Positions 231 through 55,796 of a DNA stretch of 64,000 nucleotides are shown here, piece after piece. The notes beneath the pieces are model-generated. The model worked only from the letters and a program-made list of their open reading frames with translations. It was not told the origin of the DNA and did not search any database. Source of the stretch: Candidatus Multivoradales bacterium (GTDB taxonomy: Bacteria > Acidobacteriota > Thermoanaerobaculia > Multivoradales > J023); assembly GCA_965248925.1 (NCBI GenBank), contig CBDFLE010000006.1, positions 5,120,001-5,184,000 on the forward strand, given 5' to 3'. How positions within the stretch are numbered: the first letter of the stretch is position 1; every line of letters starts with the position of its first letter. The position numbers and the translations under genes were made by a program.

Positions 231-472
231 TAGATCACCACCCTTGGCGAAGTTTCTCCTTAAGACGGTGGTCTCTCTGTGGCGCGTGGGCAGCTACTCC
301 CATGGCTCTGTTGAGGTAAAATACTGGCCGAATAGCGGGTTCTTTCACAGGTCTGTGGGGGGATTCAACAGTCAGTTCGATAGGCCTGGGCGGCGCCTAA
401 TCGGTGTCAGGGTGGGTCTGCGGGTCAAGTTTTATACTCCTGGAATTTTCTTCCGATGGCTTGCGGAGAACG
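231..472 (+). promoter_or_regulatory. Only sizeable intergenic spacer in the window; possible internal promoter and RBS of NRPS1
   Basis: Less GC-rich than the coding DNA. -10-like hexamers TAAAAT (317-322) and TATACT (433-438) lack a convincing -35. GGAGA at 465-469 precedes the ATG at 473. No Fur-box-like palindrome seen. Confidence 0.35.
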
Positions 473-18061: not shown

Positions 18062-18098
18062 CCCCTGGCTTGGATCGGCCGACGGAGAACATTTCAAT

Positions 18099-19623: not shown

Positions 19624-22600
19624 GTGAAGGCTGAACCAACATTGGCCAGGGTCAGCGCAGCCAGAAGGCCGGCGGGCACTTTGCAACGCCCCTTCGAGCC
19701 GATTCATCGATGGATCGGCCGGCGAGCTGCCAGCGCTCCCCGGAGCATCGCGATCGAATTCGCCGGTGGCTCTCTGACCTTTGGCGAGCTGGCGCAAGCC
19801 GTGGCCGAGCTGGTCGGTAGATTGCGTCGGGCCGGGGTCGACCAGGGCGATTTGGTCGGTGTTGCGACCAGCGATCGAGAGCAAGTGGTGGTGGCGCTGT
19901 TAGCAGTGCTCGAAGTCGGCGGCCTATTCATGCCGATCGACCCAGAATTCCAGGCCGCGACTCTCGGCAGCTTGATCACCGCCGCCGAGCCGTCTTGGTG
20001 GTTGGTGGCGCCGGAGCAAGCCGAGGCGATCAGGGCGGCGAGCCGCGGCTGTGGTGTCGATTGCAGCTGTCTGGATCTTTTTCCGGTCGCTAAGAAAGAG
20101 GAGAAGAGGGCCGCTGGAGCGGCGCCGGCAGCGCTCTCTGTGATCGATCCGGAGCTACCTTGCTACGTCTATTTCACCTCCGGATCCAGTGGCCAACCGA
20201 AGGGCATTGTCGGACGCCTGAAGGCCCTCGATCACTACGCGGGCTGGATGCATGACGCTTTCGACGTCGGCTCAGATTGCCGCTTCAGCCAGCTCATCTC
20301 GCCGGCCTGGGATGGCTTCTTGCTCGATGTCTTCGTGCCCCTGTCGGCAGGCGGTACGGTGGTGGCACCGCCTGATCGAACCACCCTGCTCGATGGCGCT
20401 CGATTGGTGCGCTGGCTCGACCAAGAACAGATCAGCCACATGCATTGCACCCCCTCCTTGCTGCGCAGCCTGCTCAATCAGCCATTGCAGCCGCGGCTGT
20501 TCAGAGCCTTGCGCTGGCTGATGTTGGTTGGCGAAGCGGTGTTGCCTTCGGATGTCGCCCGCTGGATGGAGATCTTCGGCGAGCGGGTTCGACTGGTCAA
20601 CTTATATGGTCCTAGCGAAACTACCCTGACCAAGCTCTTCTATTGCATCTCAAGTGCCGATGGGGCCGCCGATACAGTGCCGATCGGTGGTCCGATGCCA
20701 GGGGCCAGGGTCTTGGTGGTCGACGAGCGTGGCCAACCTTGTCCGCCAGGGCGGGAGGGAGAAATCCTGATCCGCACCCCCTATCGTTCGTTGGGCTATC
20801 TGCGGCAACCCGAGCTCAGTGCCAAGGTCTTTGTCCAGAACCCGTTCAGCGATCGGACTGGCGATCTGGTCTATCGCACCGGCGACCTGGGACGCACGCG
20901 CGCTGATGGTTTGCTGGAGTTTATCGGCCGCCGCGATGGTCAAGTGAAGATCCGCGGCGTCCGCGTCGAGCTAGTGCCGATCGAGAGCCTGCTGTCGTCG
21001 CATCCGGCGGTGAACGAAGTGGTGGTGGTCGAACGGCGTGACCGTCAGGGTGGCAACTTCCTCTGTGCCTTCCTCAGTCTCGGCCAGCCGGTCGAAAGAG
21101 GCGAGCTACGCGCTTTTCTACTCTCCAGCCTTCCCGAGATCAAAGTGCCGTCGGCTTTCGTGGTGATGGAAAGTCTACCGCGGACTTTGACTGGCAAGAT
21201 CGATCGAGGCGCGCTACCTGAGCCGAACCAGTCGCTGCTCGGCCGGGGCCAGTCCTACCGTCAGCCCCGCAATCCGGTCGAGCAGAAGTTGGCCGCAGTC
21301 TTCGGCCGCATTCTGAATCTCGAGCGAGTCGGCATCGATGACAGCTTCTTCGAACTCGGTGGCCATTCGCTATTGTCGATGGAGCTGTTGTCGGGGATTC
21401 GGGATGAACTCGGCGTCGAGCTTCCCCTGGGGCAGATTTTCGAGCATCCGACCATCGTCGCCCTGGCGCGCGTGGTCGCTCAGGGGGCGCCGGTCAGTGC
21501 TGCCCGCTCCGCCATCTCGCCGGTCGAGCTCGGCGATGGAGAGTTTCCTCTGTCTTTCTCACAGCAACGCCTGTGGTTCGTGGATCAGCTGTCGCACGAC
21601 GCCACGTTCCTCAACATTGCCGACGCTGTCGAATTGCGAGGAGAAGTTTCGCCAGAGGTGTTGCGGCGCGCGCTGGAGCGCACCGTCGAACGTCAGGAGG
21701 CTCTGCGCACGGCCTTCGCGGAGCGCGGTGGCGAGCCCGTCCAGATGGTGGGTGAGCCGTGGTCGGTAGCGCTGCCAGAAGTCGATCTTCGGAGTTTGCC
21801 AGAGGCGCAGAGAGATAGCTTGGCAAGTCGACATCTGGCGCAAGAAAGTCGCCGGGTCTTCGATCTGCGCAACGGCCGGCTGCTGCGCTGCCGGCTGCTG
21901 CGTCTGGCCGATCAACGCTACTTGCTGATCTGCGTGATCCATCACATCATCGCTGATTGGTGGTCTTTTGGTGTGCTGGTGCGCGAGCTGACGTCGGCCT
22001 ACGAAGATCTGGCCGCGGGGCGTTCTTGCACCCTGCCGGAACTCGCCGTGCAAGGTCGCGATTTCGCGCTCTGGGAGCGTCGCTGGATGGTCGACGAAGT
22101 GCTGGAGCAACAGCTGGTCTACTGGCGAGAGCGATTGCAAGGTTGTGCGACTTTTCATCCTCTACCGCTCGACTTTCCGCGGCCCAGCCGCCAGATCCAT
22201 GCTGGCGACCAAGTCGACTTCGAGTGGCCGCGGCCGCTGGCTGCTCGGCTGGTGAGGCTTGCCGAGGAGCAGGGTTGCAGCCGTTTCATGCTCGGTTTGG
22301 CGCTCTTCCAGATAGTTGTGGCGCATCTGGTCAAGACCGACGATGTGGTGATCAGTGCGCCGGTGAGCTTTCGCGATCGGCCCGAGGTCGAGCCGTTGAT
22401 CGGTTTCTTCGTCAACACGCTGTTGTTTCGTGCTCAGCTTGCCGTCGAACTCGACTTTGGCGGTTTTCTGCTCCAAGTTCGACAGCGGGTGGTGGAAGCA
22501 TTCGATCATCAGCACCTGCCGCTCGAGCGCTTGATCGAGGAGCGGGCGCCACAGCGCAGCCTCGACCACACCCCGTTGTTGCAGATCGGTTACAGCTTTT

Positions 22601-23013
22601 TCGAGCTGGCCTCGACGACTGCTCTGCGGCTCAATTCTTTGCGGATCGAGCCTTTTCCGGTTGTCGTACAGGAGGTTCAGTTCGAGCTCAATCTGATTGT
22701 TCGTGAGACCGGCGATGGCCTTGCCGGAACCTTGCAGTACCAAACCGCGTTGTTCGAGCGCTCGACTGTCGAGCGCTTTGCCGATCTCTTGGTGAGCTTG
22801 GCCGAAGCGGTTGCAGAACATCCTGAGGCCAGCCTTGGCGAGCTTCGCCAGCGGCTTGTCACGGCGGAGCAAAGTTCTCTTGAGGCTCGCCGTGAGGTGC
22901 TTGGAGGGTGGGCTCGACAGCGCTTCTCGAAACGCCGCCGAACCGTCGTGCGAGCGGTCAGCCGAGCCGCGTCTAACAACTCAGCCAGTGAGGACTCATG
23001 CAAGACTCCCTAG
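19624..23013 (+). CDS. NRPS2, 1129 aa: A(unknown substrate)-T-C plus basic C-terminal tail
   Basis: A motifs YFTSGSSGQPKG, NLYGPSE, YRTGDL and TGKIDR. T motif FFELGGHSL. C motif variant HHIIADWWS. Manual code about DGLHMVLLTK. The GTG start follows the lyase stop after a 4-nt gap; the exact start is uncertain. Confidence 0.93.
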   Translation: MKAEPTLARVSAARRPAGTLQRPFEPIHRWIGRRAASAPRSIAIEFAGGSLTFGELAQAVAELVGRLRRAGVDQGDLVGVATSDREQVVVALLAVLEVGGLFMPIDPEFQAATLGSLITAAEPSWWLVAPEQAEAIRAASRGCGVDCSCLDLFPVAKKEEKRAAGAAPAALSVIDPELPCYVYFTSGSSGQPKGIVGRLKALDHYAGWMHDAFDVGSDCRFSQLISPAWDGFLLDVFVPLSAGGTVVAPPDRTTLLDGARLVRWLDQEQISHMHCTPSLLRSLLNQPLQPRLFRALRWLMLVGEAVLPSDVARWMEIFGERVRLVNLYGPSETTLTKLFYCISSADGAADTVPIGGPMPGARVLVVDERGQPCPPGREGEILIRTPYRSLGYLRQPELSAKVFVQNPFSDRTGDLVYRTGDLGRTRADGLLEFIGRRDGQVKIRGVRVELVPIESLLSSHPAVNEVVVVERRDRQGGNFLCAFLSLGQPVERGELRAFLLSSLPEIKVPSAFVVMESLPRTLTGKIDRGALPEPNQSLLGRGQSYRQPRNPVEQKLAAVFGRILNLERVGIDDSFFELGGHSLLSMELLSGIRDELGVELPLGQIFEHPTIVALARVVAQGAPVSAARSAISPVELGDGEFPLSFSQQRLWFVDQLSHDATFLNIADAVELRGEVSPEVLRRALERTVERQEALRTAFAERGGEPVQMVGEPWSVALPEVDLRSLPEAQRDSLASRHLAQESRRVFDLRNGRLLRCRLLRLADQRYLLICVIHHIIADWWSFGVLVRELTSAYEDLAAGRSCTLPELAVQGRDFALWERRWMVDEVLEQQLVYWRERLQGCATFHPLPLDFPRPSRQIHAGDQVDFEWPRPLAARLVRLAEEQGCSRFMLGLALFQIVVAHLVKTDDVVISAPVSFRDRPEVEPLIGFFVNTLLFRAQLAVELDFGGFLLQVRQRVVEAFDHQHLPLERLIEERAPQRSLDHTPLLQIGYSFFELASTTALRLNSLRIEPFPVVVQEVQFELNLIVRETGDGLAGTLQYQTALFERSTVERFADLLVSLAEAVAEHPEASLGELRQRLVTAEQSSLEARREVLGGWARQRFSKRRRTVVRAVSRAASNNSASEDSCKTP

Positions 23014-26000
23014 AAGGATTCCACCTTTCGAGCCAGCAGCTTCGGCTGTGGAGTGTGGCGGTTCGGGGTCAGGGCATGACCCCGCGAGCGGTGGCAAGGA
23101 TCGAATTCCACGGCGAGCTGGATCCTCAGGCCCTGTCTGCGGCGGCGAGCCAGCTGGTGGCGCGGCATGAGATTTTGCGTACCGCTTTTCGTTGCCTGCC
23201 AGGGATGAGCCGGCCGCTGCAGGTGATCGAGGAGCCGGCCGCGCCCTTGATCGAGAGGCGGGATTTCAGTGGCATCGACGAGCAGCTGGCCGCGGTGGCC
23301 GTGGCGCAAGCTTGCATCGAGTTGCAAGAGTGCGAACTCGACCTCGAAGTCGGGGTTGCATGGCGAATGCTCTGCTTACGGTTGGGCAGGGATCGCCACC
23401 AGCTGGTGTGGGTGCTACCAGCATTGTGCTGTGATGCCGCGAGCATGGTCAACTTGACCGCCGAGTTGAACCAGGCTTATCGGCAGGGGGCGGCAACCCT
23501 GGACGAGGCCACCCAATATGCCGACATCTCTAGTTGGCAGGCCGAGCTTCTGGAGGCTGATGAAGCCAGTGAGGGGAGGGCCTTTTGGCGCCGCTTGGGC
23601 GCCGCACTACCGGTCCTCGGCGACTTGCCCTTCGAACGACGCCAGGCGGAGTCCGCCGCTGGCGAGCGGGGGACCTCGCGGGTCCGGTTGCCGGCGGTGT
23701 TGGTAGACGCTCTGCGGGTATCGGCCGCAGCTCACGGCGCTGAGCCCAAAGTGCTGCTGGCGGTGGTTTGGGCGACCTTGCTGGGCCGGCTGCTGGAATC
23801 CTCCCGAGTGGCTCTAGGGATGCTTGTCGAGGGGCGTCCCTATGAAGAGATGGTGACCGCGGTGGGCCCCTACGCGCGCTGGGTGCCGCTCGATTTCCCC
23901 CTGCCAGACGAGGCCGATTTTGGCGCCTTGGTCGAGTCCACGGCGGCCCGTTTGAACGAACTCGAGGATTGGCTGGACAGCTACGACGAGCATGCTCTAG
24001 CAACCGCCTCCGAAGCTGCCGATGGGCATCGATTCGGCTTCGAATTCGAATCTCTCACTGCTGTGGTTTCCGCCGACAAGTTTCGCCTGGTGGAGCGTCG
24101 GTGGACTTCAGAGCCCTTCGAACTTCTATTGAAAGTGTGCCTCGCGGCGGCTGGCGACAGTGACGCCGAGAGTCATGTCGAACTGCATTGGAATTCTGCC
24201 CGCTGGCTGGGTTGGGAGCTCGAGCAGCTGCCATATTGGTATCGGCACCTACTCACCGACGCGGTGGAGCGGGGCGGGGCCTTGACAGCGTTGGCATGGG
24301 GTGACGCTGCCCCTCGCCGCGCTCGCTTGGCGGCGCTGAGCAGTACAGCGATCGATGTTGGCAGCGATGCCTTGCTACCGCGGCTGGTCGAGCACCAGGC
24401 CAGAATGACGCCACAACGTTGGGCGGTCAGCAGCTCCCAGGGCGAGCTCAACTATGCCGAGTTGGTTGAGCGCGCCACGCGGCTGGCGCGGCAACTGCGC
24501 GCGCGGGGCGTTGGTCAGGGAGACCGAGTAGGGATTGCAGTGCAGCGATCGCTGGCGATGGTGGTCGGCATGTTGGCGATCTGGAAGACTGGAGCTGCCT
24601 ATGTGCCGCTCGACCCAAGCTATCCGGCCGAGCGCTTACGCTTCATGATCGAGGATTCGGACCTCGCCTTGTTGCTCACCCACGAAGGCGGTTTGGCCGA
24701 CTTGGACGGCTTCACTGATCGCTGTTTGCTGGTTGATCCAGCGGGGGTTGGTGAGGGGTCGACAGCTGGCGGGGAAGGATTGCCCGAAGTTTGCTCATCG
24801 GCGCCCGCTTACGTCATCTACACCTCGGGCTCGACCGGACGGCCGAAGGGAGTAGTGGTAGCCCATCGGGCGATCGCCAATCGCTTATCGTGGATGCGCC
24901 GCGCCCAGCCGTTGGCGGCCGACGATCGGGTGCTGCAGAAAACTCCTTTCAGCTTCGATGCCTCGATTTGGGAGATCTTCCTTCCTCTGATCAGCGGCGC
25001 CGGCTTGGTGTTGGCCGAGCCTGGTGGGCAGCGTGACAACGCCTACTTGCTGGCGACCGTCGTCGCCCAGCGCATTACTGTGCTGCAATTGGTGCCATCG
25101 CAGCTGGCGGTTTTTCTACAGCAGCCTGATATTGAAGAGGGCTGTCGAGGGCTGCGGCGGATGTACTGTGGCGGGGAGGCTTTCGCGGTCCACCTGGCGG
25201 CTCGTTTTCATCAGCTTTGTGGTGCCGAGCTGTACAACCTCTATGGCCCCACCGAGGCTTCCATCGATGTTGCTTGGCAGCAGAGCTCGGGCGCCATGAG
25301 CGACGAAAGTGGCCGCGCCGCCTGGTTGCCGATCGGCCGGGCGCTTGACAACGTCCGCTTGTTGGTGGTCGATCGGCGTCTGCGCCAGCAGCCCTGGGGA
25401 GTGTCCGGCGAGCTGCTGATCGCTGGTGTCGGCCTGGCCCAGGGCTATCACCATCGGCCCGGCCTGACCGCCGAGAGGTTCTGCCCTGATCCAGCGGGGG
25501 TCGAAGTCGGTGGTCGTGGCTATCACTCCGGCGACCGGGTGCGGCGGCTACGCGACGGTGGGCTCGAGTTCCTTGGTCGCCTCGACGAGCAGGTCAAGTT
25601 GCGGGGCTTTCGCATCGAGCTGGGTGAGATCAATACTCTGATCGAGCGTCAGCCGGGTGTGCGCGAGGCGGCGACGGTGCTCCACGGCGACAGCATGGAC
25701 CAGATCCTGGCTACTTACGTGGTGCCGAGCGACCAGCAGTTGGAGGTCGAAAGTCTCGGACGGGTGCTGGCGGAGTGGCTGCCTGAGCACATGATTCCGA
25801 CGGTTTTCGTCGAACTCGATACTTTGCCGCGGCAGCCCAACGGCAAGCTCGATCGGGGTGCTCTACCCGAGCCACGGCGGCAACGTGGCGAACAGGTGCA
25901 GTGGGTGGCGCCGCGCAATTCTACCGAAGAGCTGTTGGCCGGATTCTGGTGCGAGCTGTTGGGAGTCGACGAGGTTGGTATCGACGATGATTTTTTCGCC

Positions 26001-29000
26001 CTCGGCGGACACTCGCTGTTGGCTACTCGGCTGATCGCTAGAGTGCGCGAGTTGTTCCAAGTCGAGATCAAGGTCGCGCAGCTCTTCGAGCGGCCGACGA
26101 TCGCCGAATTGGCGCCAGAGATCGCCGACGCCCGAGGCTCGAAGGATGCAACTGCTGCTGCCATTCCGCCACTGCGGCGAGCGCCGCGACCGGTACGGAT
26201 CCCGCTGTCGTTCGGACAACGGCGACTGTGGTTCCTCGACCGGCTTCAGCCTGGGTTGGTGGCCTACAACTTACCCGTGGCGATCGGCCTAGAAGGGCGG
26301 CTCGAGCGGTCGGCGCTCGAAGCAGCCCTCGGCGAAGTGGTGCGGCGTCACGAGGTCCTGCGCACGGTTTTTGAGCAGGCCGACGGCGAGCCTTACCAAA
26401 GGCTGCTGGCGCCCAACCCGGTAGTCCTGCCATGGGTCGACCTCGAGCAGCTCGAGGCTGGCGATGCCGAGGACGAGGCGCGGCTCTGGCTGGGCGAGGC
26501 AGCCGCGAGACCCTTTGATTTGCGCCGCGGGCCTCTGCTGCGGGGCCTGGTGCTGGTTCTGGAGGCGGATCGCCACGTCGCGCAGCTGACCTTGCACCAC
26601 ATTGTTTCGGACGGCTGGTCCAACAGCTTGCTAGTCGAGGAGCTGTCGACTCTTTATGGGGCGTTCATCAAGGCTCGACCCAGCCCCCTGGCGGAGCTAC
26701 CGGTGCAGTACGCAGACTACGCTTGTTGGCAACACGGTTGGCTGGCAGAGGAGGTGCTAGAGAACGAGTTGGCCTACTGGCGAGCGGCCCTAGCGGGGGC
26801 GCCAAAAGAGCTTGGTCTGCCCACCGATCGGCCGCGTCCGGCGGTGCAGTCCTTTCGCGGTGCCAGCTGCGACCTGCGGCTCGATGAAGGGCTTTCGCAG
26901 CAGCTGAAGAATCTCGCCCTACAGAGTTCGGCGACTCCTTTCATGGTCTTCGTCGCTGCCTTTCAGTTGCTGTTGGGCCGCTATGCCGGTCAGCGTGATC
27001 TCTGTATTGGAACACCGGTCGCGGGCCGCGGTCAGCTGCTTTCAGAAGGGTTGATCGGTCTGTTCGTCAATACTCTGGTACTGCGAGCCGAACTCGACCC
27101 GCGGCAGACCTGGGCCGAGCTGTTGACGGCGGTTCGCGCCACTTGCCTGGCCGCCCACGACCATCAGGAGCTGCCTTTCGAGTGCTTGGTGGAAGCCATC
27201 GAAAGCGAGCGCAGCCTCAGCCATTCGCCAGTTTTTCAGGTCATGCTGGCGCTGCAGAACGTACCTCGCGCGAGCCTCGATCTTCCCGGCCTGACCTTGA
27301 GAGCGTTAGAGTCGGATCACCGCACCTCGAAGATGGAGCTGACCCTGGTGCTGGCGGAAGCCGACGGCTGCTTTAGCGGCTCGCTAGAGTACAACACCGA
27401 CCTCTTCGACGGCGTTACCATGCGGCGCCTACTGGGCCACTTTGCAACCCTGCTCGGCAGTGTTGCCGCCGCTCCTCAGAGTCTCCTGGGTGAGCTCGAC
27501 ACGCTCTCTCGCGCCCAGCGCAATCAGCTACTGCAAGAGTGGAATTCGCGGCCGCAAACGGATACTTCGGAGCCCTTTTCCCATCGCCTCTTCGCTCTTC
27601 GGGCGGCGCAGCAGCCAAAGGCGTTGGCGGTTGCCGACGAGCGCGGCGAGCTGAGCTACGGCGAGCTTGATCAGCTGGCCAACCGGTTGGCGCACCAACT
27701 TGTCGACCTAGGAGTTGCTGCGGACCATGTGGTGGCAATCATGGTGGAGCGGTCGCCGAGTTTGGTGGTGGCGATTCTAGCGGTGATGAAGGCCGGTGGT
27801 GCCTACCTACCGCTCGACCCGGACCATCCCTCAGCCCGCTTGCAGCTGATGCTCGAAGATGCCCAACCAACAGTTTTGATCGCCACCGGAGCAACCCTCG
27901 GCCTGTTGGCCGAAGTAGCGCTGCCGGTCTTGCGGCTCGACCAGGAAGTCGGCAAAGCGGCGACAAAGACTCCGCTGGGGTCCCCCGAAGTCGAGCTGCT
28001 CCCCTCCAACCTGGCCTACGTGATCTACACCTCGGGATCTACGGGTCGACCGAAGGGAACTGGTTTGACTCATGCCGGCTTGGCCAACTTGGCGGCTTGG
28101 CATCGCCGTACCTATGCCGTCGAAGCGGCAGATCGCGCCACCATGGTCGCCAGCCAGGCCTTCGATGCTTCGGTTTGGGAGTTGTGGCCCTATCTCACCG
28201 CTGGCGCTAGCCTGCATGTGCCCGGCGCGGCGGTGCGGGGCGCGCCAGCGGCACTCTTCAGCTGGCTGGGGGAGCAGCGCATCAGCTTGAGCTTCTTGCC
28301 CACCCCGTTGGCCGAAGCGATGCTCGAAGGGGTGGCGCCGGCGGGTCTTGCCTTACGCGCCCTGTTGATCGGTGGAGACCGGCTGCACAAGATGAGTGGC
28401 AAACCACTGCCCTGCCGCGTGGTCAACCACTACGGTCCGACCGAGGACACCGTGGTGTCGACTTGGGGCGAGGTGCCGGCAGAAACCGTTTCTGACCCCT
28501 CGATAGGGCGGCCGATCGATCAAACCTCAGCCTATGTCGTCGACGCTGACCTGCGCCTGCTGCCGATCGCGGCCCGGGGTGAACTGGTCCTCGGCGGCGT
28601 CGGGCTAGCCCGCGGCTACCTACGCCGGCCAGCAGCGACGGCAGCTGCCTTCATCCCCGATCCTTTCAGTAGCCAAGTGGGGAGCCGCTTGTATCGAAGT
28701 GGCGATCTGGTGCGCCTGTCAGTGGCTGGTGATCTCGAATTCCTCGGTCGTCGCGACCACCAGATCAAGGTGCGCGGCTTTCGTATCGAACCGGGCGAGA
28801 TTGAAGCAACTCTGATGGCTGTGCCGGGGGTTCGCGAAGCCCTGGTGGTGGCCCGCAAAGCGGCCGGCGGTGGTCACCGGCTGGTGGCCTACATCGTGCC
28901 GGACGAGCCGTCTGTCGACCCGGAGTCGGCGGCCGAAGGGCTGCGCCAGGTGCTGCGCGCGGCGCTGCCGGACTACATGGTGCCGAGCGCCCTGGTGGCG

Positions 29001-47400: not shown

Positions 47401-50400
47401 CGAACTCGAATCCACCGCCTATGTGATCTACACCTCGGGTTCGACCGGCCAACCCAAGGGAACGATGATCTCGCAGCGCTCGCTGTCCAACTACTTGCTG
47501 TGGGCGGTTGCGGCTTACGGTGCTGAACAGGGTGGGGGGTCCTTGGTAGCGTCGTCGCTGGCATTCGACCTCACCATCACCTCCTTGCTGGTGCCGCTGA
47601 TCAGTGGCACCGGCGTGCGCTTGATCAGCGCTGCCGCCGGCGCCTTGGGATTGGGCGAGAAGTTGCTCGAAGCAGCCGACCTCAGCCTGCTGAAGCTGAC
47701 CCCGAGCCAAGCCCAGCTGATCGCCCGCCAACGATCCGGCGCTGAACTCGAGGGTCGCGCTCGCTGCTTAGTACTGGGCGGCGAAGCGCTGAGCGCAGAG
47801 CATTTCGCCACCTGGCCGTCGGCCACTCGGGTGGTCAACGAGTACGGACCTACCGAAGCCACGGTCGGCTGTATTCTGTTCGAAACCCGACCCACCGTCG
47901 CTGAGGGCGCGGTACCGATCGGCCGTCCGGTGGCAGGTGCCCGCGCCCATCTACTCGATCGCCATGCTTCCCTGGTAGCACCAGGAGTGGCCGGTGAACT
48001 GTACCTCGGCGGTCCCGGTTTGGCTCGCGGCTATGTCGGCCGTCCTGCTCTGACCGCCGAGCGTTTTGTGCCCGATCCCTTCACTGAGCGGCCGGGTGAA
48101 CGGCTCTATCGCAGTGGCGATCTGGCGCGCTATCTGGCGGCTGGTGAGCTGGATTTCCTCGGTCGTTGCGATCAGCAGATCAAGCTGCGCGGCTACCGCA
48201 TTGAGCCGGGGGAGATCGAAGCCTTGCTGGCTGCTCGGCCGGGGGTCGAAGAGGCTTTTGTAATGCTCGAGCAGAACGGTGAACGGCTGCTGGCCTATGT
48301 CGCCGCCGGTGGCGAGCCGCCCAAAGCCGAGGAGCTGCGGCAGCAGTTGGCCAGCCGCTTGCCCGAATACATGGTGCCGTCGGTGATCGTCGTCTTGCCG
48401 GCGTTGCCGTTGACTGTCAACGGTAAGATCGATCGCCGGGCACTGCCGCCGCCGGTTGCCGCTCCGGACGCCGACGCGGCGCTACCGGCGGGCCAACTCG
48501 AGCAGCTGCTGGCGAAAATCTTCGCGGCAGTGTTGGGCCTTGACGAGGTCGGCCGCGAGGAGAGTTTCTTTGCCCTGGGTGGACACTCTCTGCTGGCCAC
48601 GCAGGTGGTGTCGAGAATCCGCGCCGCGATGGCTGTCGAGCTACCACTGCGGGAACTTTTCGAGCAGCCGACGGTGGCTGGCTTGGCGGCGCGAGTCGAA
48701 CTCGCCATGGCCGATAACCTGGGACTGACGGCGCCACCGCTAGTGCCGGCGGCGCGCGATCAACCGCTGCCGCTGTCCTTCACTCAAAGGCGCCTGTGGT
48801 TCATCGATCAGCTCGATACTGGTAGTGCGGCCTACAACTTGCCGCACGTACTCCGTTTGCGCGGCGAACTCGATGTCAGCGCGCTGGCCTGGGCCTTCAG
48901 TACCCTGGTCAGGCGTCACGAGATCCTGCGGACCAGCTTTGGCACCGAGGACGAGCAGCCGGTGCAACGGGTGTCGCCGGCTGCCGAGTGGCGTTTGCCG
49001 AGGGTCGATCTAGGTTCTCTCGAGGTCGCCGATGGCGAGCACCAGGCGCGGAGGTTGGCGCGCCAGGAAGGGCAGCGGCCTTTCGATTTGAGCCGTGGGC
49101 CTCTGCTGCGCACGGTGCTGCTGGATCTGGCGGAAGAGCAGCACCTGTTGCTGGTCACCATGCATCACATCGCCAGCGATGCCTGGTCGATGCAGATACT
49201 TAGCGGCGAGGTCGGGCAGCTGTATCAGGCGGCGGCCGCCAGGCAACCCGATTCACTACCGCCGCTGCCAATTCAATACGCCGACTACGCAGTATGGCAA
49301 CGTCAATGGCTGGCCGGCGAAGTCCTGGAGCAAATGCTCGAGACCTGGACCGGCAAGCTGCGCGGTGCACCGCGGCGCCTGGATCTGCCCTTTGATCGGC
49401 CACGGCCGGAGGTGCCTTCGCTGCGCGGCGGCAGCCAGCCCTTCGTTCTACCAGCGGCGTTGGCCGGCGAGCTGCGGGGTCTCGGCGCGGCGGCAGACTG
49501 TACATTGTTCATGACCCTGCTGGCCTGCCTCTACGCGCTGCTCTACCGGCTGACAGGTCAGCCAGATTTGGTGGTCGGCACCGACCTGGCAAACCGCAAC
49601 CGGGCCGAGACCGAAGGCTTGATTGGGTTTTTCGTCAATATCCTGCCGCTGCGCCTCGACCTTTCGGGGGGGCTTAGTTTTCGCCAGCTGTTGACCCGCG
49701 TGCGGCTGGAAACACTGTCGGCGCTGACTCATCAAGACTTGCCTTTCGACCAGCTGGTGATGGCGCTCAGCCCGGAGCGCAGTCTGGCTCCTTCGCCGCT
49801 ATTCGACGTTCTATTCGTCAATCAGACCGAGGGCCGGACGCCGGTCGCTGAGAGTTCCGAAGGCGCCGGCGAGGCCGCTGAACCACCGTCGCTGACCTTT
49901 GAGCCGATGGTGCCAGAGTTTGCGGTGTCGCGCTTTGAGCTGGCGCTCTTCGTCGGCGAGGATGGCGGCACTATCGCTGGTGCTTGGGACTTCCAGCTGG
50001 ATCTGTTCGACCCGTCGACCATCGCTACCTTGAGCTCTCGATTCGAAACCTTGATTGCCTCGATCGTCGCCTTACCGGACGCGCCGATCGATGCTCTCGA
50101 ATATCACACCGCAGCAGAACGATTGGAGCAGGACATGCAACGACAGCAACGCCAAGCAAAGAGTTTCAGCAAGTTCAAGAAGATCAAACCCAAGGCGGTG
50201 AGCCTGACCAGCGATGCCGAGCTGGTGGCCACCAGTTACCTGAGCGAGGACAGCCGGCTGCCGGTGGTCTTCCAGCCCACCCAACCTGATGTTGACTTGG
50301 TGGAGTGGGCGGCTGCCCACCGGCAGCAAATCGAAGACCGGGTAAGGCGCCATGGCGCGGCTCTGTTCCGTGGCTTCGGTGGCCCCTCGGTGGAGCGCTT

Positions 50401-51211
50401 TGAGCGCTTCGCGGTGGCGGTCTGCCCCGATCTCTATGGCGACTATGGCGACCTACCGAAGGAAGAATCGGGCGACAATATCTACCATTCGACTCCCTAC
50501 CCGAAGGATAAGATGATCTTGTTCCACAACGAGAGTTCGCATCTGGAGCGCTGGCCGATACGCCAGTTCTTCTCCTGCGTCGTCGCCTCTACCAGCGGTG
50601 GTGAGACCCCGATCGTCGATTGCCGGCAGCTCTATCGCCACCTCGACCCGGTGCTGCGCCAGCGCTTCGAGGAGCAGGGTCTACGCTATGTTCGCAACTT
50701 CACTCCCGGGCTCGATGTCAGCTGGCAGGATTTCCTCAAGACCGAAGATCGGCAGCAAGCCGAGCACCAGATGGCGGCGCGGGGCCTGGGCTTCGAATGG
50801 AAAGAGGGGGGCGGGCTCCGCATCTGGAAGCGGGCACCAGCGATCGTCCAGCATCCGGACACCGGCACAGCACTGTTCTTCAACCAGATCCAGCTCCACC
50901 ATGTGGCCTATTTGGACGAAGAGGTGCGCTCTAGCCTGCTAGCTCTGTATGCGGTGGAAGATCTGCCGCGCAATGTCTATTTTGGTGATGGTTCGCCGAT
51001 CGAAGACGAGGTAGCGCAGGCCATTCTCGAGCTCTATTGGCGGCACTCGGTGAGTTTCCGCTGGCAAGAGGGCGACATCGTGATGCTCGACAACATGCTC
51101 ATCGCGCATGCTCGCAATCCTTTCGAGGGTGAGCGCAAGATCATCGTTGCGATGGGGCGGATGTTCGCCCAGGAAGACCTCACCAGCACCGCAGTTGGTG
51201 AGCGGAGCTAG
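29423..51211 (+). CDS. NRPS4, 7262 aa: docking-C-A(Thr)-T-C(modAA)-A(hydrophobic)-T-C-A(Ala)-T-C-A(Lys)-T-C-A(unknown)-T-C-A(Asn)-T-C-TauD-like Fe(II)/2-oxoglutarate beta-hydroxylase
   Basis: Seven C, six A and six T motif sets. Manual codes: DFWNIGMVHK, DALVMGVTYK, DLFNNALTYK, DAEDIGTIVK, DAEIAGLISK and DLTKVGEVGK. The C-terminal ~310 aa carry GAALFRGF, FHNESSH, GGETPIVD and DNMLIAHAR (H-x-E...H facial triad). ATGA overlap with NRPS3. Confidence 0.96.
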   Translation: MSRRQLEERLRQLPAAKRQQLLGLMRQRATADRLSEKIPRRRQDGPSPLSFAQQRLWFLDRLTPDNAAYNLPFAVRLEGQLEVAELEAAILEVVSRHQVLRSRFSTVGGQPRQQPAAMAEVGLARVDLGRLTEAAGDRELARRLNDEASRPFDLQAELPFRACLVELRKHHHVVLFTLHHIAADGWSMGNLSAEVAALYGALVAGEESDLTALEVQYSDYAAWQRETLEGEVLQAQLDYWRQCLSGAPQVLELPTDRPRPATQSLRGSFRKLQLGTDLAVALEGLAQASEVTSFMLLMAAFQTLLSRYCGQTDLVVGSPVANRGRPELEPLIGYFVNNLALRSDLSGNPVFADLLASTKTSVLAAFDHQEVPFEKLIDEFGLERSLSYPPLFQVVFALQAAAPEPIAIPGGLRMSAIDLDSYSAKFELTLSMQRSKDGFHGGLEYATDLFDSTTVDRLLGAFANLLRGLVKQSRARLWELPLLSASECWQVRTEWSGGGLDLVPRNNLIDCFAARVANGPERLAVACGRRSLSYGELDRRSTELAAELVERGALPGQRIALCVERDVELAVGILGILKAGCAYLPIDSKLPAERLRFLLEDAAAELVVADRAASTAALPTSVVAPVRVDRLTAAKVTDWRPVSVPPEAPAYVIYTSGSTGRPKGVVVSHANVLRLFDASERWFNFDASDVWTLFHSYSFDFSVWEFWGALLYGGRLEVVPYSVSRSPADFRALLTERGVTVLNQTPSAFRQLIQADEQVGGTAALRLRWVIFGGEALEPRSLAGWVERHGDGHSDGGVVGRRGPRLINMYGITETTVHVTYRRLTRREIELGFGSVIGVPIPDLQTLVLDHRGGLVPIGVAGELQIAGGGVASGYLHRAALTAMRFVPDPYSRKAGSRLYRSGDLGRWSGRGELEYLGRIDLQVKVRGFRIELGEIEAALAAHARVAEAVVVARREGGERQRLVAYVVGDEQLPSVGELRSFLADSLPEHMLPAHIVALAAMPLTANGKLDRGALPAPSEERPDLVAEYIEPRTAAEAVLCRVWAEVLGIEKVGINDNFFALGGDSILSLRAVALAGEAGVPVALPDLFRFQTVAELGEKIGDALEQFEERPATAPFSLLSEAQRAALPDDVVDAYPLTYLQSGMLFHMELTPEEPLYHNVDSWHLRGRFEFAPFRLAVDRVVARHPILRTSFDLEAAEEPLQRVHRQARLPISVIDFRGLPSDLQELRIQSFLGQQKRCLLDFSRPPQLRFYIHLRSAETFQFTLIENHAILDGWSLHSTLAEMFELFFALLDGDDPAIEPPLSLTFREFVERERQALESQETIDYWQRQLADLTLPELPSWPLDAVFEAPRIRSHEVPLEAALFDRLVALQRIAGVPIKSIFLSAHLKVLSLTTGRHEVFTGLASNGRLEEAEGDQVRGLFLNLPPLRLRLQGGSWVQLARQVFAAETELLPHRLYPQAALQRQFGQRALVDISFNYMHFHVIGELLLSDRVEVLDSTNLGGTNFKLTANFAQNMEGSQAGLILEYDSQALPPAQAAAIGELYGKVLAAMAGEPGGSHQMLDYLRPSDRHRLLVELNDTGSDYEDQLSVPQLFAQQVDARPDAIAIGAGSTQLSYGELDRRARRIAHQLIDLGVELEDPVGVCLRRSPELIVALLAVVKAGGVYIALDPEYPVERLRLMIEDTAMAVLVTASDLSERLPSGAAQLLLIDRAEHGTSAAVRRSSPLIDALPVEGLCLLIYTSGSTGQPKASGTTHRGVVSLVRGGSHYAELLPTDTMLQQAPVSFDASVLEIWGMLLNGGRVGIGSADQLDLDEVATALIAQRVTVQVLTSGLFRLLAEERLDSLAGLRDLMTGGEAASVPHMRKVLRAYPRLRLSNVYGPSENSTYSAVQMTRPWHLGAASMPIGTPVSNRTVLVLDGFLRLVASGVPGRLYVGGHGLARGYWRRPGMTASVFVPHPYSRQRGERLYDTGDLARLLADGSLDFLGRQDHQVKIRGFRIEPGEVAVALMELPEVGDAVVVVSQGDTEKHLVAYVVPTAPVADLERCLHAALATKLPTYMLPSAIVELASLPLSPNGKLDREALPAPRSRNLASPLVRLPESAAEKLLAEIWQEVLVVDGLGVDENFFELGGHSLLATRVISRLRRSLNIELPLSALFEEPTIGGLARLLERDTQNALGASRRIERRAAGQEQAPSFGQRRLWFIDQLKPGNPVYNIANALRLEGQVDSAVLVYSIERLVERHQVLRTVFHEIDGQPVLEVRPPGTLTLPEIDLSGLPTASQWPVVRELAAGEASAPFDLGSDSVLRVTLLRLAADDQVLLLVVHHIAADGWSMDLMIHEISAHYSAAAAGQQAPLPELPIQYADFAAWQQELLSSAVGEQQLQFWHRTLDQAPALLELPLDRPRPAVQRHRGARYDFQVPAALSAALRDLGQQLGATPFMILLTAFKVLLARHSGQSDISIGTPIAGRRMSEAENLIGLFANTLVLRNTLQPANSFSSLVAAIRATTLDAYENQDLPFERLVEELKPERSLAFSPLFQVFFVWLDAAVGGQPAAVEALRWSSVETGHTTSMFDLALTMHERQGAFVGEFVFDTDLFEASTVQRLAERFRVLLDSAVARPGMLIAELSLLPGAEVEQLLLQLAPGAPPVGTRPRFLHQFFGCQAALTPAAVAVVHGDRHWTYAELDQRATEIAAGLQARGVGPEVLVAVCVERGAELVAALLGVLKAGGGYLPLDSAYPTSRLRATLQDSRATLLLVDDEATAKRLEGTVQWLLVSTVVADPDRWLAMDLDPDQLAYSIYTSGSTGRPKGIGITHGSAAQLVAWASAEFSAAELEAVLASTSVCFDLSVFEIFVPLSVGGRVVMVSDALELAEGGAGATVTLINSVPSAISELNRLEAIPPTVRTLNLAGEPLRGELLRSLYEGSSVERVLNLYGPSEDTTYSTWAQPLRASSEEPPIGRPISGSSVFLLDPLGQLVPIGVVGELLLAGAGLARGYLGRPALTAERFVPDGVSGRSSARMYRSGDLARWRVNGELEFLGRLDHQVKVRGFRIELGEIEVALSEVGGVDSMVVVAEGSAEARRLVAYVTGRLEVEELRRQLSRRLPAYMVPEVFVVLEALPLNVNGKIDRDCLPSPAAELVARGMVSRLPESPTELRLAAIWQEVLELGEVGAEESFFTLGGHSLLATRVISRVRTEFAAELPLRSLFETPTIAGLARQVDLARQPTTLPALRPLLRGGPLPLSFAQQRLWFIDQLEPGNLVFNIPIVLHAEGPLEVAALAACFTEVVRRHEVLRTTFATEDGEPVQVVARPRPVSLPLIDLCALRAADRQQQTDRATDLCERRPFNLATGPLVRCALIRMEQGQHQLQVTLHHIVSDAWTLEVLYQEVAALYHAFSQRQPSPLAELPLQYADYAGWQRQWLRGEALEQRLDFWRHTLAGAPPLLELPYDRPRPAMQSHRGGYHRFTLSQQVAATVGKLGQSLTATPFIILLALFKGLLARYSGAIDLVVGTPVAGRDHLELERLIGCFINTLVLRTDLSGDPSSRQLVQRVREVFLAADAHQQVPFEKLVEELGVERSLTHSPLFQVMFLQPRSALVSSSPNEAETRPDASREELSWRVVERAGETSQFDLTLSVQEDAAGGLVGTLEYCLDLFEPSTMERLARHYSNWVAGALADPELTLSQLSMLSPVERYQLRFERALGGSTGSVPWSTVQQGIWQQARCAPQRLALVADDVQLSYAELVGAAARLGERLRLLGVGPEVAVALSVERSPEMVVAVLAVLAAGGFYVPLDPALPTARCEWIVDQARPRVLLTRAALRQRFAVGEAEVLLLDDVLSAPAAAGDATVAELPLPAAGESAVYAIFTSGSTGRPKGVLVSHQSLANYTAVASQVFVVSAEDRVLQLASLSFDASAEEIFPALTRGATLVLRDEAMMGSARAFFAACRRQRVTVLDLPTALWHELMQAMEEEDLTLPGTLRLVILGGEAAQSEPWAIWRRRVGSRVRLVNTYGPTESTIVATHWQLGRRAWLASDGEMPMGRPVAGCATYLAGRRLQLVPPGVDGELLIGGRGVARCYLGQPALTAERFVPNPFSDRPGDRLYRSGDLARWRSDGALRFIGRLDQQIKIRGFRVELGEIENVLAAHPQVREAALRMFEDPRGARLVAYVVGTAKATDLRQFLAARLPDYMVPAQFVDLERLPLNTMGKLDRQALPQPRPVDGVGSGYSAPRGAIEQGLAEIWQDVLGVEQVGRSDDFFALGGHSLLATRVIARLRRLLGVEPPLRLLFEAPVLAQQAASLGEFGGRAQAPPIEPQSRDQPLVVSFAQQRLWLIDQLDPGSAAYNMPIAMRVEGELDIAALGWALSEMMRRHEVLRSRFVGVKGVARQRVDPPPPPFLPLIDLSGLTGADRRCSTLGRVAEEAATPFDLARGPLLRALVLRLAEQQHAILITVHHIVSDGWSMELMSREMIALYGAGSNGRPSPLAELPIQYGDFAIWQRRWLAGEVMDAELAYWRRQLAGAPPVLELPLDRPRPALQSSAGAHFGCRLDADTGSAVRRLARELGATPFMVMLAAYGGLLARHSNQLDLCIGTPVAGRGRLELEPLIGFFVNTLVLRADCSGDPSGALLVERTKEAVLAADQHQNVPFDKLVEELAVERSLSTSPLFQVMFALQNAALEAPRPALPGNEPNRWEALELPGQSAQFDLTLTVFDGDDMAVDIEYRSSLFDPTTIERMAGHYRNLVRALLVAPQRSWSLLTMLSAAERCQLMVELQGPEGASDEGSLVHQRFQAQARRCPEAVAVVHAGGELTYAELAQASAELATCLCQQGVGPEVAVALVVERGPEMIVAVLGIAEAGGFYVPIDPSLPAERQAFMLDEVRPSVLVTQSHLRPDLPPHGATIVLLDPPTAEQERRVAGRVIGRLDPENPAYTIYTSGSTGRPKGVVIRHGALAEYIETTVEKYGLRPGDRVLQFSSVSFDASVEEIYSPLVCGATLVLRDEDMLSSVAAFLDRCERWRLTVLILTTAYWHELAVALDREDLELPPLVRLLAIGGEAALAEAWSSWSRRVDPRVRLINLWGTTETTISTTQWQVRGLPSHGTSEMPIGRPLRNYRTYLCGRYLEPVPLGVSGEALIGGSGLARGFFGRPRLTAQRFIPDPFACLSGSRLYRTGDLARWTPDGVLEFAGRIDLQVKVRGFRVELGEIESVLMSHPAVREAAVTLRDEVAGDQRLVAYLTGAAATAEELRAHLADRLPAYMVPVAFVALEQLPQTALGKVDRRALPAPARKDLTAGLFVPPCGAMETAIASIWQEVLAVERVGRDDNFFALGGHSLLAARVISRLRQALGVEPPLRAIFESPTLADLAVSLEQLSADAGERIGRQQPGASQPLSYAQRRLWLIDQLEPGSAAYNIPTALRIEGQFEITVLSRGLTEVVRRHQVLRTRFESLGGIPQQVIEAAMAVALPLVELSALRPAERAAEEARWLAAEADQPFDLGRAPLLRGLVLRLAPECHAVALSVHHIASDGWSMELLTQEVSELYRAFAAGRPSPLEELQIQYADFAAWQRQQQSAEDLEAELSYWQERLAAAPPPLELPFDRPRPAIQSGRGAHSDRALAAPISRAVRRLAEAGEATLFIALLSGFQAFLGRLTGQLDFTVGTPVAGRDRLETEPLIGFFVNTLVLRADLTQQPNWEELLRRTRQRTLEALDHQTLPFEKLVEVLDPQRSLAYAPLFQVMFQLNSTAVAKPEVLDEVAAEAADGPRWSLLGAASSSTKFDLTLAVSELDEGLHLTLEYSTDLFEKTTIDRLLRGYEILLEGLAMEPELPFWQLPLLSPSERRQLLEEWSGAAAAVPEVEPLSVLFAARVQQFPQRLAVIDEYGSLSYRQLDQRAEQLAAYLRQLGAGAEVRVGLLSERSLDMVVALLAIAKTGSAYVPLDPAHPPARLVFVLADAAATIVVGEDGLLEGLELPPSVRHLVGFDSAKSALAGRSTVAVPAPYELESTAYVIYTSGSTGQPKGTMISQRSLSNYLLWAVAAYGAEQGGGSLVASSLAFDLTITSLLVPLISGTGVRLISAAAGALGLGEKLLEAADLSLLKLTPSQAQLIARQRSGAELEGRARCLVLGGEALSAEHFATWPSATRVVNEYGPTEATVGCILFETRPTVAEGAVPIGRPVAGARAHLLDRHASLVAPGVAGELYLGGPGLARGYVGRPALTAERFVPDPFTERPGERLYRSGDLARYLAAGELDFLGRCDQQIKLRGYRIEPGEIEALLAARPGVEEAFVMLEQNGERLLAYVAAGGEPPKAEELRQQLASRLPEYMVPSVIVVLPALPLTVNGKIDRRALPPPVAAPDADAALPAGQLEQLLAKIFAAVLGLDEVGREESFFALGGHSLLATQVVSRIRAAMAVELPLRELFEQPTVAGLAARVELAMADNLGLTAPPLVPAARDQPLPLSFTQRRLWFIDQLDTGSAAYNLPHVLRLRGELDVSALAWAFSTLVRRHEILRTSFGTEDEQPVQRVSPAAEWRLPRVDLGSLEVADGEHQARRLARQEGQRPFDLSRGPLLRTVLLDLAEEQHLLLVTMHHIASDAWSMQILSGEVGQLYQAAAARQPDSLPPLPIQYADYAVWQRQWLAGEVLEQMLETWTGKLRGAPRRLDLPFDRPRPEVPSLRGGSQPFVLPAALAGELRGLGAAADCTLFMTLLACLYALLYRLTGQPDLVVGTDLANRNRAETEGLIGFFVNILPLRLDLSGGLSFRQLLTRVRLETLSALTHQDLPFDQLVMALSPERSLAPSPLFDVLFVNQTEGRTPVAESSEGAGEAAEPPSLTFEPMVPEFAVSRFELALFVGEDGGTIAGAWDFQLDLFDPSTIATLSSRFETLIASIVALPDAPIDALEYHTAAERLEQDMQRQQRQAKSFSKFKKIKPKAVSLTSDAELVATSYLSEDSRLPVVFQPTQPDVDLVEWAAAHRQQIEDRVRRHGAALFRGFGGPSVERFERFAVAVCPDLYGDYGDLPKEESGDNIYHSTPYPKDKMILFHNESSHLERWPIRQFFSCVVASTSGGETPIVDCRQLYRHLDPVLRQRFEEQGLRYVRNFTPGLDVSWQDFLKTEDRQQAEHQMAARGLGFEWKEGGGLRIWKRAPAIVQHPDTGTALFFNQIQLHHVAYLDEEVRSSLLALYAVEDLPRNVYFGDGSPIEDEVAQAILELYWRHSVSFRWQEGDIVMLDNMLIAHARNPFEGERKIIVAMGRMFAQEDLTSTAVGERS
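50230..51180 (+). other. NRPS-fused TauD/SyrP-like aspartyl beta-hydroxylase domain (approximate limits)
   Basis: HNE at 50525-50533 and distal His (IAHAR) at 51107. It is fused after a terminal C domain and directly upstream of an I-A(Asp) protein, the arrangement described for fused beta-hydroxylases in siderophore NRPSs (Reitz et al. 2019, PNAS). Confidence 0.85.
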
Positions 51212-51218
51212 CGCGATT

Positions 51219-55788
<4,570 letters not shown>

Positions 55789-55796
<8 letters not shown>

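Follow-up and report, generated by a model that had tools for sequence, protein, structure and literature searches.

The 64,000-nucleotide stretch analysed here, called the window throughout (contig CBDFLE010000006.1 of a Candidatus Multivoradales bacterium, positions 5,120,001 to 5,184,000 of the forward strand), carries a long array of nonribosomal peptide synthetase (NRPS) genes, all of them co-directional. Domains were called with Pfam and phmmer, and together with a further NRPS gene upstream of the window the assembly line comprises about 18-19 modules. Our subject is the first module of NRPS3, which starts with a domain resembling a condensation (C) domain, referred to as I3, and continues with an adenylation (A) domain of glutamine-like code and a thiolation or peptidyl carrier protein (T/PCP) domain. 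Interface (I) domains were reportedly described by Reitz et al. (2019, PNAS) in siderophore NRPSs with aspartyl or histidyl beta-hydroxylases, and a preliminary description of this DNA had proposed that I3 is such a domain, placed on a module for a different residue. The module and the end of the preceding protein contain the following features (residue positions in amino acids, aa):

21544..22881, forward strand: terminal C domain of NRPS2 (aa 641-1086, motif HHIIADWWS; PF00668, E value 5.6e-87)
22998..24317, forward strand: I-type C-like domain of NRPS3, I3 (aa 1-440; PF00668, E value 1e-35 over aa 33-323)
23415..23435, forward strand: LPALCCD block of I3 (aa 140-146), in place of the HHxxxD part of the C active-site motif
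24390..25922, forward strand: A domain of NRPS3 module 1 (aa 465-975), code DAWQYGLIDK, Gln-like
25935..26114, forward strand: carrier (T/PCP) of NRPS3 module 1 (PF00550, aa 980-1039)

The C domain of NRPS2 is a normal one that stops at residue 1086 of 1129, and the remaining 43-aa tail holds no TauD-type hydroxylase domain, as had been stated before. The NRPS2 and NRPS3 genes overlap by 16 nucleotides. One module is split over the two proteins, with NRPS2 giving the catalytic C domain and NRPS3 giving the I, A(Gln) and T domains. Two other I domains are present in the window, at the starts of NRPS5 and NRPS6, the first of them behind a fused hydroxylase:

50279..51151, forward strand: TauD domain at the C-terminal end of NRPS4, fused behind the last C domain (PF02668, E value 2.3e-45)
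51219..52517, forward strand: NRPS5 I domain with LPALCAD, followed by an Asp-coded A domain; it comes directly after the TauD fused to NRPS4
55789..57120, forward strand: NRPS6 I domain with LPALCAD, followed by an Asp-coded A domain; NRPS5 upstream ends with a C domain and a basic tail

We compared I3 with these two domains and with the other C and epimerization (E) domains of the window. The N-termini read MQDSLEGFHLSSQQLRLW in NRPS3, MTAEAFLLSPGQRRLW in NRPS5 and ..VEGFRASPQQRRLW in NRPS6, and the motif at the start of the domain is EGFHLSSQQLRLW, AEAFLLSPGQRRLW and VEGFRASPQQRRLW, respectively. The alignment bears out the earlier observation that I3 shares both this start and the LPALC(C/A)D motif with the two Asp-module domains; S.QQ.RLW at the start is simply the C1 core motif found in ordinary C domains, and the LPALCxD block is the discriminating feature. 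LPALCCD of NRPS3 and LPALCAD of both NRPS5 and NRPS6 align with the xHHxxxD of the window's ten other C/E domains, which puts Pro and Ala of I3 into the two His columns; the catalytic HHxxxDG is gone. Identity among the three I domains is 26-27%, compared with 16-26% to the other C/E domains, and is so low that membership in the family rests on the motif, profile scores and trees instead.

A search of a protein collection with residues 1-450 of I3 gave 532 matches, and the following figures refer to the best 120 of these. Among the matches listed, 49 proteins had their best match at the extreme N-terminus with at least 90 bits, and 48 of the 49 lacked the HH motif. I3 scored 95-208 bits against the N-terminal domains of 48 database NRPSs in this list, whereas ordinary C domains reached at most 90 bits. 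The family signature includes RHEILRT.F, PLQVI, LPALCAD, QYAD..W and a DGR.YEEL..A.G block. In 117 I-type domains the consensus of the block is LPALCAD with an invariant D (117/117), and the six commonest residues in the catalytic-His column are Ala (83), Ser (14), Gly (5), Pro (5), Thr (4) and Val (3). Trees agreed with this grouping: FastTree separated the 117 I-type rows from ten C/E rows of the window with a support of 99, and a quick IQ-TREE run separated 56 I-type rows from seven C/E rows, again with 99, the I-type rows being recognised by profile and C-TauD-I-A(Asp) architecture rather than taken from published I-domain reference sequences, and the outgroup being the window's own C/E domains only, with X, starter, Cy and other C subtypes not included. 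The assignment in the preliminary description thus held for the split from the C/E domains of the window, within a tree set defined by architecture.

The profile built from 11 I-type domains matches solved C domains such as PvdL (E value 4.8e-66). No solved I domain was found by sequence, the top matches to the profile in the PDB being ordinary C domains; entries 8z0q, 8z0r and 8z0s, deposited as 'Special condensation domain in NRPS', match it with an E value of 9.4e-51, below the ordinary C domains, and our literature search found no paper that names 8z0q. Searching with the I domain of NRPS5 gave 124 matches, mainly from Acidobacteriota, Cyanobacteriota and actinomycetes, and named classical siderophore NRPSs appeared neither among these 124 nor in the scan of genome contigs. 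In 40 related genomes no ortholog of I3 was found (best identity 38%, with matches mostly to ordinary C domains). I3 is located directly before an A domain, after a complete C domain and at a protein junction. Judging from these features, residues 1-440 of NRPS3 form a genuine interface-type domain, i.e., a condensation fold that has lost its catalytic histidines. Predicting the substrate from I-domain phylogeny was rejected as an approach: Gln-coded I domains are dispersed across the tree.

The specificity code of the adjoining A domain was read at the Stachelhaus positions, taken from an alignment of all 16 A domains in the window. The A domains of NRPS5 and NRPS6 carry DLTKVGHVGK, an Asp code. 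The code of NRPS3 module 1, DAWQYGLIDK, equals the Gln code DAWQFGLIDK, as printed in the accessible text of PMC8313283 and PMC2866473, at nine of ten positions and departs from it by a change of F to Y at position 299; its earlier description as Gln-like was accurate. Such codes predict and do not prove, and the domain might load Glu or a substituted Gln instead, with the exchange at position 299 as the mark of it; Glu-like codes do exist on I-modules of the same family. We consider this highly improbable, however, since nine positions are those of the printed Gln code, the DAWQYGLID variant recurs in an independent locus from a metagenome (L112), and the Glu-like I-modules use a distinct code, DAKDLGVVD. 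The carrier of NRPS3 module 1 presumably holds a Gln thioester as the substrate of a hydroxylase.

The preliminary description had recommended looking beyond the window for a stand-alone Fe/2-oxoglutarate (2OG) dioxygenase, and this was rewarded by a stand-alone TauD gene outside the window, at C6:5098992-5100044 (PF02668, E value 6.8e-51), whose relatives stand directly before Gln, Asn, His or Glu I-modules. It lies 11.6 kb ahead of the first NRPS gene, and its distance to NRPS3 is about 43 kb. PF02668 occurs in the genome in five full-length genes and one fragment, and all five full-length genes belong to two NRPS clusters with I domains: the one fused to NRPS4, the stand-alone one on C6, and three on C5. 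The stand-alone protein keeps H131, E133, H325, R327 and R334, which are invariant in 15 aligned relatives and which we take to be the facial triad and the 2OG-binding Arg. NCBIfam gave no informative name for either the stand-alone or the fused TauD. The fragment consists of 135 aa of a TauD C-terminus (C6:5095554-5095961). In the region C6:5095554-5111507, which includes this fragment, the stand-alone TauD is separated from the first NRPS gene by a tight co-directional set of genes for radical SAM, class-V aminotransferase, GcvH-like and CobW proteins, a DUF116-polyprenyl synthase fusion, and prenyltransferase-like and squalene-hopene-cyclase-like proteins.

NRPS3 is not the only protein of the cluster to follow one without a fused hydroxylase, because NRPS5 ends in a C domain plus basic tail (54330-55796) and no TauD precedes the I domain of NRPS6. 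The remaining case, C-TauD of NRPS4 followed by I-A(Asp) of NRPS5, repeats the arrangement of potashchelin, whose order is C-TauD-C-A(Asp) according to the accessible text of PMC7100376. The cluster has three I domains and two TauDs; consequently, either at least one hydroxylase acts on two modules or some I domain plays a different part, and one Asp might be left unmodified.

To place the hydroxylases, we used a finished IQ-TREE analysis of 49 of 71 rows, the other 22, near-duplicate or redundant fused-Asp rows, having been left out. The tree gave three firm groups. Fused TauDs formed a clade of 10 rows (support 100/99) with Asp and Asn partners, in which the NRPS4 domain is sister to a Sorangium C-TauD preceding an Asp I-module. 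Stand-alone TauDs with mostly Asp partners formed a second clade of 16 rows (96/87). The third clade, of 21 rows (100/99), consists of stand-alone TauDs whose labelled partners are Gln (6), Asn (6), His (3), Glu (1), an SSRD code (1) and Asp (1). The stand-alone TauD of this cluster belongs to the third clade, in which 17 of 18 labelled partners are non-Asp, and its best identity, 56%, is to the TauD of a Gln module. The clades of these hydroxylases seem to track substrate class, not gene position. As the cluster has no other non-Asp I-module, I3 is the best candidate client of the stand-alone TauD. A Gln subclade containing this protein, seen with a support of 85-87 in a quick tree, was discarded; it dissolved into a polytomy in the finished, careful tree.

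The same genome contains a second giant NRPS cluster (C5:2187874-2295791, minus strand) with two I-modules and three stand-alone TauD genes. In one of them (C5:2263414-2270363), a TauD is followed by I(LPAMAAD)-A(Gln, DAWQFGLID). The other I-module has a Glu-like code and no adjacent TauD, and two tandem TauD genes are found about 70 kb away at the cluster edge. One of these distal TauDs groups as sister (100/99) with a TauD located immediately before a Glu-coded I-module elsewhere and thus matches the code of the neighbourless module, which suggests that I-modules in this genome are paired with distal hydroxylases according to substrate class.

A different enzyme might be recruited by I3, such as the TauD fused to NRPS4 acting on several I-modules, or one of the upstream non-TauD enzymes (radical SAM, aminotransferase). 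Three I domains for two TauDs would fit this view, as would the methyltransferase inserts (PF05050) in the A domains of Gln and Glu I-module relatives, including both I-modules of the C5 cluster, which link further tailoring to such modules; the accessible text of PMC13638107 also allows that I domains may recruit additional enzymes. The inserts are frequent in these relatives among the matches listed. The A domain of NRPS3 has no insert, however, with A at aa 465-975 and T starting at aa 980, the fused TauD groups firmly with the fused hydroxylases of Asp and Asn modules, and no result ties any other upstream gene to I domains. We therefore regard a different enzyme as improbable.

All I junctions of the genome have a further feature in common. 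The C proteins that precede them end with a basic motif of the approximate form (K/R)(L/F)xxx(K/R)R(K/R)x(V/I), which is repeated at the N-terminus of junction TauDs. In the window it occurs at three sites:

22921..22962, forward strand: NRPS2 tail motif RFSKRRRTVVRAVS, within the 43-aa tail after the C domain
about 50190-50270: NRPS4 motif FSKFKKIKPKAVSL, in the linker between C and TauD
within 55700-55790: NRPS5 tail motif RLRGARRAVAV

Every I-domain junction in the genome carries the motif, with or without a TauD: these three and the two C5 junctions. NRPS1 also ends in a C domain, followed by a protein that starts with an A domain and has no I domain, and its tail is without the motif; the presence of the motif in the NRPS2 tail and not in that of NRPS1 characterises the NRPS2/NRPS3 junction as a typical I junction. 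Across the loci collected from databases (see below), the motif is present at the end of the upstream C protein both where an I-module gene comes next and where a TauD gene does. A strict version of the pattern was found in 16 of 35 C tails before I domains and 35 of 51 before TauDs, as compared with 0 of 31 tails before C domains, 0 of 3 before A domains and 1.5% of random 30-aa windows. The stand-alone TauD has the motif in its N-terminal leader (LGKLRRRSVRITSSSLVEE), as junction TauDs do, and the leaders of the three C5 TauDs resemble the tail motif of NRPS2 and NRPS5. By this resemblance, the distant TauD would bear the address label of junction hydroxylases, and the basic motif may be a docking peptide.

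To see how common such modules are, two scans were run with an alignment of 11 I domains, yielding 158 loci (80 from genomes and 78 from metagenomes) with flanks of 10 kb. Custom profiles for I, C, A and TauD recognised 155 I-type domains in the 158 loci, 43 of them without a readable code, and a TauD was counted as directly upstream when within 1.5 kb. Of the 155 domains, 13 were Gln-coded. Six of ten evaluable Gln I-modules had a TauD directly upstream, two had one elsewhere in the locus and two had none, while three were not evaluable. For the Asp I-modules the count was 39 of 60 evaluable, with TauD elsewhere in the locus in five cases and none in 16, and for the others 13/18 (Asn), 4/4 (His-type) and 2/3 (Glu-like). 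Gln I-modules pair with hydroxylases about as often as Asp ones, and a missing neighbour is common in both. The preliminary description had pointed to the missing fused hydroxylase before NRPS3; the lack of an adjacent TauD is common among Asp I-modules too (21 of 60). Its suggestion that I-domain tailoring extends to a new residue or another trans-acting enzyme is partly supported by the Gln-like code and the stand-alone TauD, but the case is not singular, given the other Gln I-modules with TauD and the second example within the genome.

The same picture emerged from the 49 proteins of the I3 search, where the codes after the I domain in the matches listed were Gln (13), Asp (12), Asn (8), Glu-like (3) and others (4), besides five cases of DSALIAEVWK, which we take to be a His code, and four of DAR.(V/L)SQMT. 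In metagenome locus L112, a module coded DAWQYGLID is preceded by a TauD, and the relatives otherwise read DAWQFGLID. A Gln I domain is not unusual in sequence space and is recurrent in nature. Other codes behind I domains (loci L004-L161) were SSRD(L/I)A(M/L)GI, DAR.(V/L)SQMT, DASTVAA(I/V), DVWFWGGIG and DAENIGAVT, with a TauD in some of these loci.

On balance, we lean towards the interpretation, derived from sequence comparison, that the carrier-bound Gln of NRPS3 module 1 is beta-hydroxylated in trans by a stand-alone TauD, with the I domain as the platform. The A domain would load L-Gln onto the carrier, and I3, bound to the basic NRPS2 tail, would form a platform at the NRPS2/NRPS3 junction and recruit a trans-acting TauD-family Fe(II)/2-oxoglutarate hydroxylase, for which the protein encoded at C6:5098992-5100044 is the best candidate. 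This enzyme would turn Gln-S-carrier into 3-hydroxy-Gln-S-carrier, either ahead of peptide-bond formation by the C domain of NRPS2 or at the same time, and 3-hydroxy-Gln would become residue 9 of a lipopeptide of about 18-19 residues. We infer both the action of the stand-alone TauD on this module and the position of the hydroxylation. A complex prediction for I3 and the TauD, with both partners given as alignments, scored 0.56 against 0.21 for the best control (contact agreement between runs at least 84%, predicted local distance difference test (pLDDT) of the partner at least 83), which is weak support: 58 of 80 solved complexes attain the mark, as do 2 of 110 mismatched pairs, and a pass at or below 0.60 is wrong more often than right if the pairing was not likely beforehand.

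Several other points weigh against hydroxylation of Gln by this enzyme. NRPS3 has no fused or adjacent hydroxylase; about ten unrelated-looking genes separate the candidate from the NRPS genes, and its membership in the cluster is presumed. Within its clade it stands in a polytomy in which Asn partners are as frequent as Gln (six each), and one module of the cluster, NRPS4 module 6, is Asn-coded but carries no I domain. Its client could also be the Asp I-module of NRPS6, which has no TauD of its own. The choice of tree rows by architecture and the four of ten evaluable Gln I-modules without a TauD directly upstream count on the same side. In the group nearest to I3 (seven rows with a support of 98 in FastTree; a nine-row group with only 84 in IQ-TREE), three of the six companions lack a TauD within 10 kb, and for a fourth the TauD belongs to the next module.

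The last of these observations would also suit a docking-only or orphan I domain, where I3 merely binds the basic tail of NRPS2 to hold the split module together, no Gln is tailored, and the stand-alone TauD serves the Asp of NRPS6 or the Asn of NRPS4 module 6 or is unrelated to the cluster. The basic motif stands at every I junction of the genome irrespective of a TauD, and junctions without TauD elsewhere keep it at the end of the C protein at the frequency given above against the 1.5% background. In addition, 16 of 60 Asp I-modules have no TauD in their locus, and the I domain of the myxoglucamide system is dispensable for hydroxylation, as stated in the accessible text of PMC13638107. Flanks of 10 kb, however, miss distal hydroxylases, and TauDs lie about 70 kb from their apparent client I-module in this very genome; the bias of the candidate's clade speaks against Asp of NRPS6 as client, I3 is the sole non-Asp I-module at hand, and the complex prediction favours contact of I3 with the TauD, if weakly. 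We consider a purely structural role of I3 the main rival, though the less likely explanation. Rather more speculatively, I domains may primarily be docking modules that read a basic peptide, of which the subgroup of I3 (Gln/Glu, often without TauD) would be a hydroxylase-independent use, or else a single peptide code may address distal hydroxylases to chosen modules, which would render the residue-specific installation of 3-hydroxy-Gln portable.

Hydroxylation of carrier-bound Gln at I3 would be a variant of systems already described. Like I3, the I domains of siderophore NRPSs have a condensation fold without HHxxxDG, stand directly before an A and after a complete C domain, and mark the junction of two proteins; their TauD-family hydroxylases are fused after the upstream C domain or stand alone, and the NRPS4/NRPS5 pair reproduces the fused form for Asp. 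Unlike these systems, NRPS3 has a Gln code rather than one for Asp or His, and its hydroxylase would be neither fused nor adjacent. Furthermore, the cluster looks like one for a long lipopeptide instead of a short siderophore, and the relatives found are mostly from Acidobacteriota and Cyanobacteriota, not from proteobacterial siderophore producers.

In the glidomide pathway, the I domain is reportedly essential to the formation of beta-hydroxy-His by the stand-alone GlmF (Chen et al. 2022, Angew, as cited in the accessible text of PMC13638107). That system resembles our proposal in its trans-acting stand-alone TauD-type enzyme working on the carrier-bound residue of an I-module, but its residue is His instead of Gln, and the hydroxylase gene here is distant from the module. 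The preliminary description held that I domains were defined on Asp and His modules only, which is out of date: the myxoglucamide proteins MxgA/MxgB, as reported in 2026 in the accessible text of PMC13638107, have a fused C-Ox followed by I-A(Glu)-T, with beta-hydroxylation on the carrier that is cryptic, en route to a vinyl gamma-amino acid. NRPS3 shares with this system an I domain on a five-carbon acidic or amide residue and a module whose C domain ends one protein and whose I domain opens the next, and differs from it in that the myxoglucamide dioxygenase is fused and its substrate is Glu, not Gln. The Gln I-modules at L020, L109, L112, L118, L129, L139 and C5:2263414-2270363 belong to the same family and code class as NRPS3 and have TauDs of the same clade; unlike in NRPS3, the TauD directly precedes the I-module, several have a methyltransferase insert, and none has a known product.

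I domains are thus known for Asp, His and, since 2026, Glu, and Gln is a new substrate variant of a known system. No title or abstract in our literature search linked a bacterial I domain to Gln, subscription papers and supplements being outside its coverage, and peptide natural products with hydroxy-Gln appeared, in titles and the beginnings of abstracts, only as fungal peptides or the actinomycete GE23077. If Gln is hydroxylated here, the logic of I domain and TauD would cover amide residues besides Asp, His and Glu, and the product may be a new lipopeptide scaffold, 3-hydroxy-Gln being rare in bacterial peptides. I domains are detected by antiSMASH 8 (accessible text of PMC12230676). Codes for Gln, Asn, Glu, His and other residues together make up about one third of the readable I-modules, and mining tools that take I domains as markers of beta-hydroxy-Asp would mispredict many clusters if this reading is true. 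The motif at I junctions and in the hydroxylase leader could guide the engineering of split NRPS modules.

The genes of the cluster within the window are arranged as follows:

404-18061: NRPS1, five C-A-T modules and a terminal C domain
17994-19619: MIO-type lyase/mutase gene (PF00221)
19624-23013: NRPS2, A-T-C
22998-29426: NRPS3 (2142 aa, start codon ATG), C-like, A, T, C, A, T
29423-51211: NRPS4, six modules, then C, then a TauD domain
about 51219 (true start) to 55796: NRPS5, C-like, A(Asp), T, C (1525 aa in the database gene call)
about 55789-60396: NRPS6, C-like, A(Asp), T, E-like
60378-63470: NRPS7, C, short A remnant, T, thioesterase (TE)

The NRPS gene upstream of the window encodes 2864 aa and starts with a fatty-acyl-AMP-ligase-like domain, and an ABC transporter gene is located 3' of NRPS7. 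The MIO-type gene lies between NRPS1, with C at its end, and NRPS2, with A at its start (code DGLHMVLLTK). Its product has its top score as histidine ammonia-lyase (564 bits, subfamily cut-off 524) and falls far under the cut-offs for tyrosine or phenylalanine aminomutase; this may hint at a beta-amino acid of an unusual kind or at a unit derived from His. Two C domains, at 10213-11587 (NRPS1 aa 3270-3728) and 32795-34162 (NRPS4 aa 1125-1580), are divergent and have DCL-like motifs at the N-terminus; both come after Thr-coded modules without an E domain, and they might act in stereo-gating or dehydration. One of the two reads ENHAILDG and has lost the first His, and the one in NRPS1 precedes the Cys-like code DLYNFSLVWK. 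In NRPS7, an A-domain remnant of about 200 aa (aa 465-668, 61770-62381) gave no Pfam match and a weak match to the custom A profile; NRPS7 is apparently an A-less last module.

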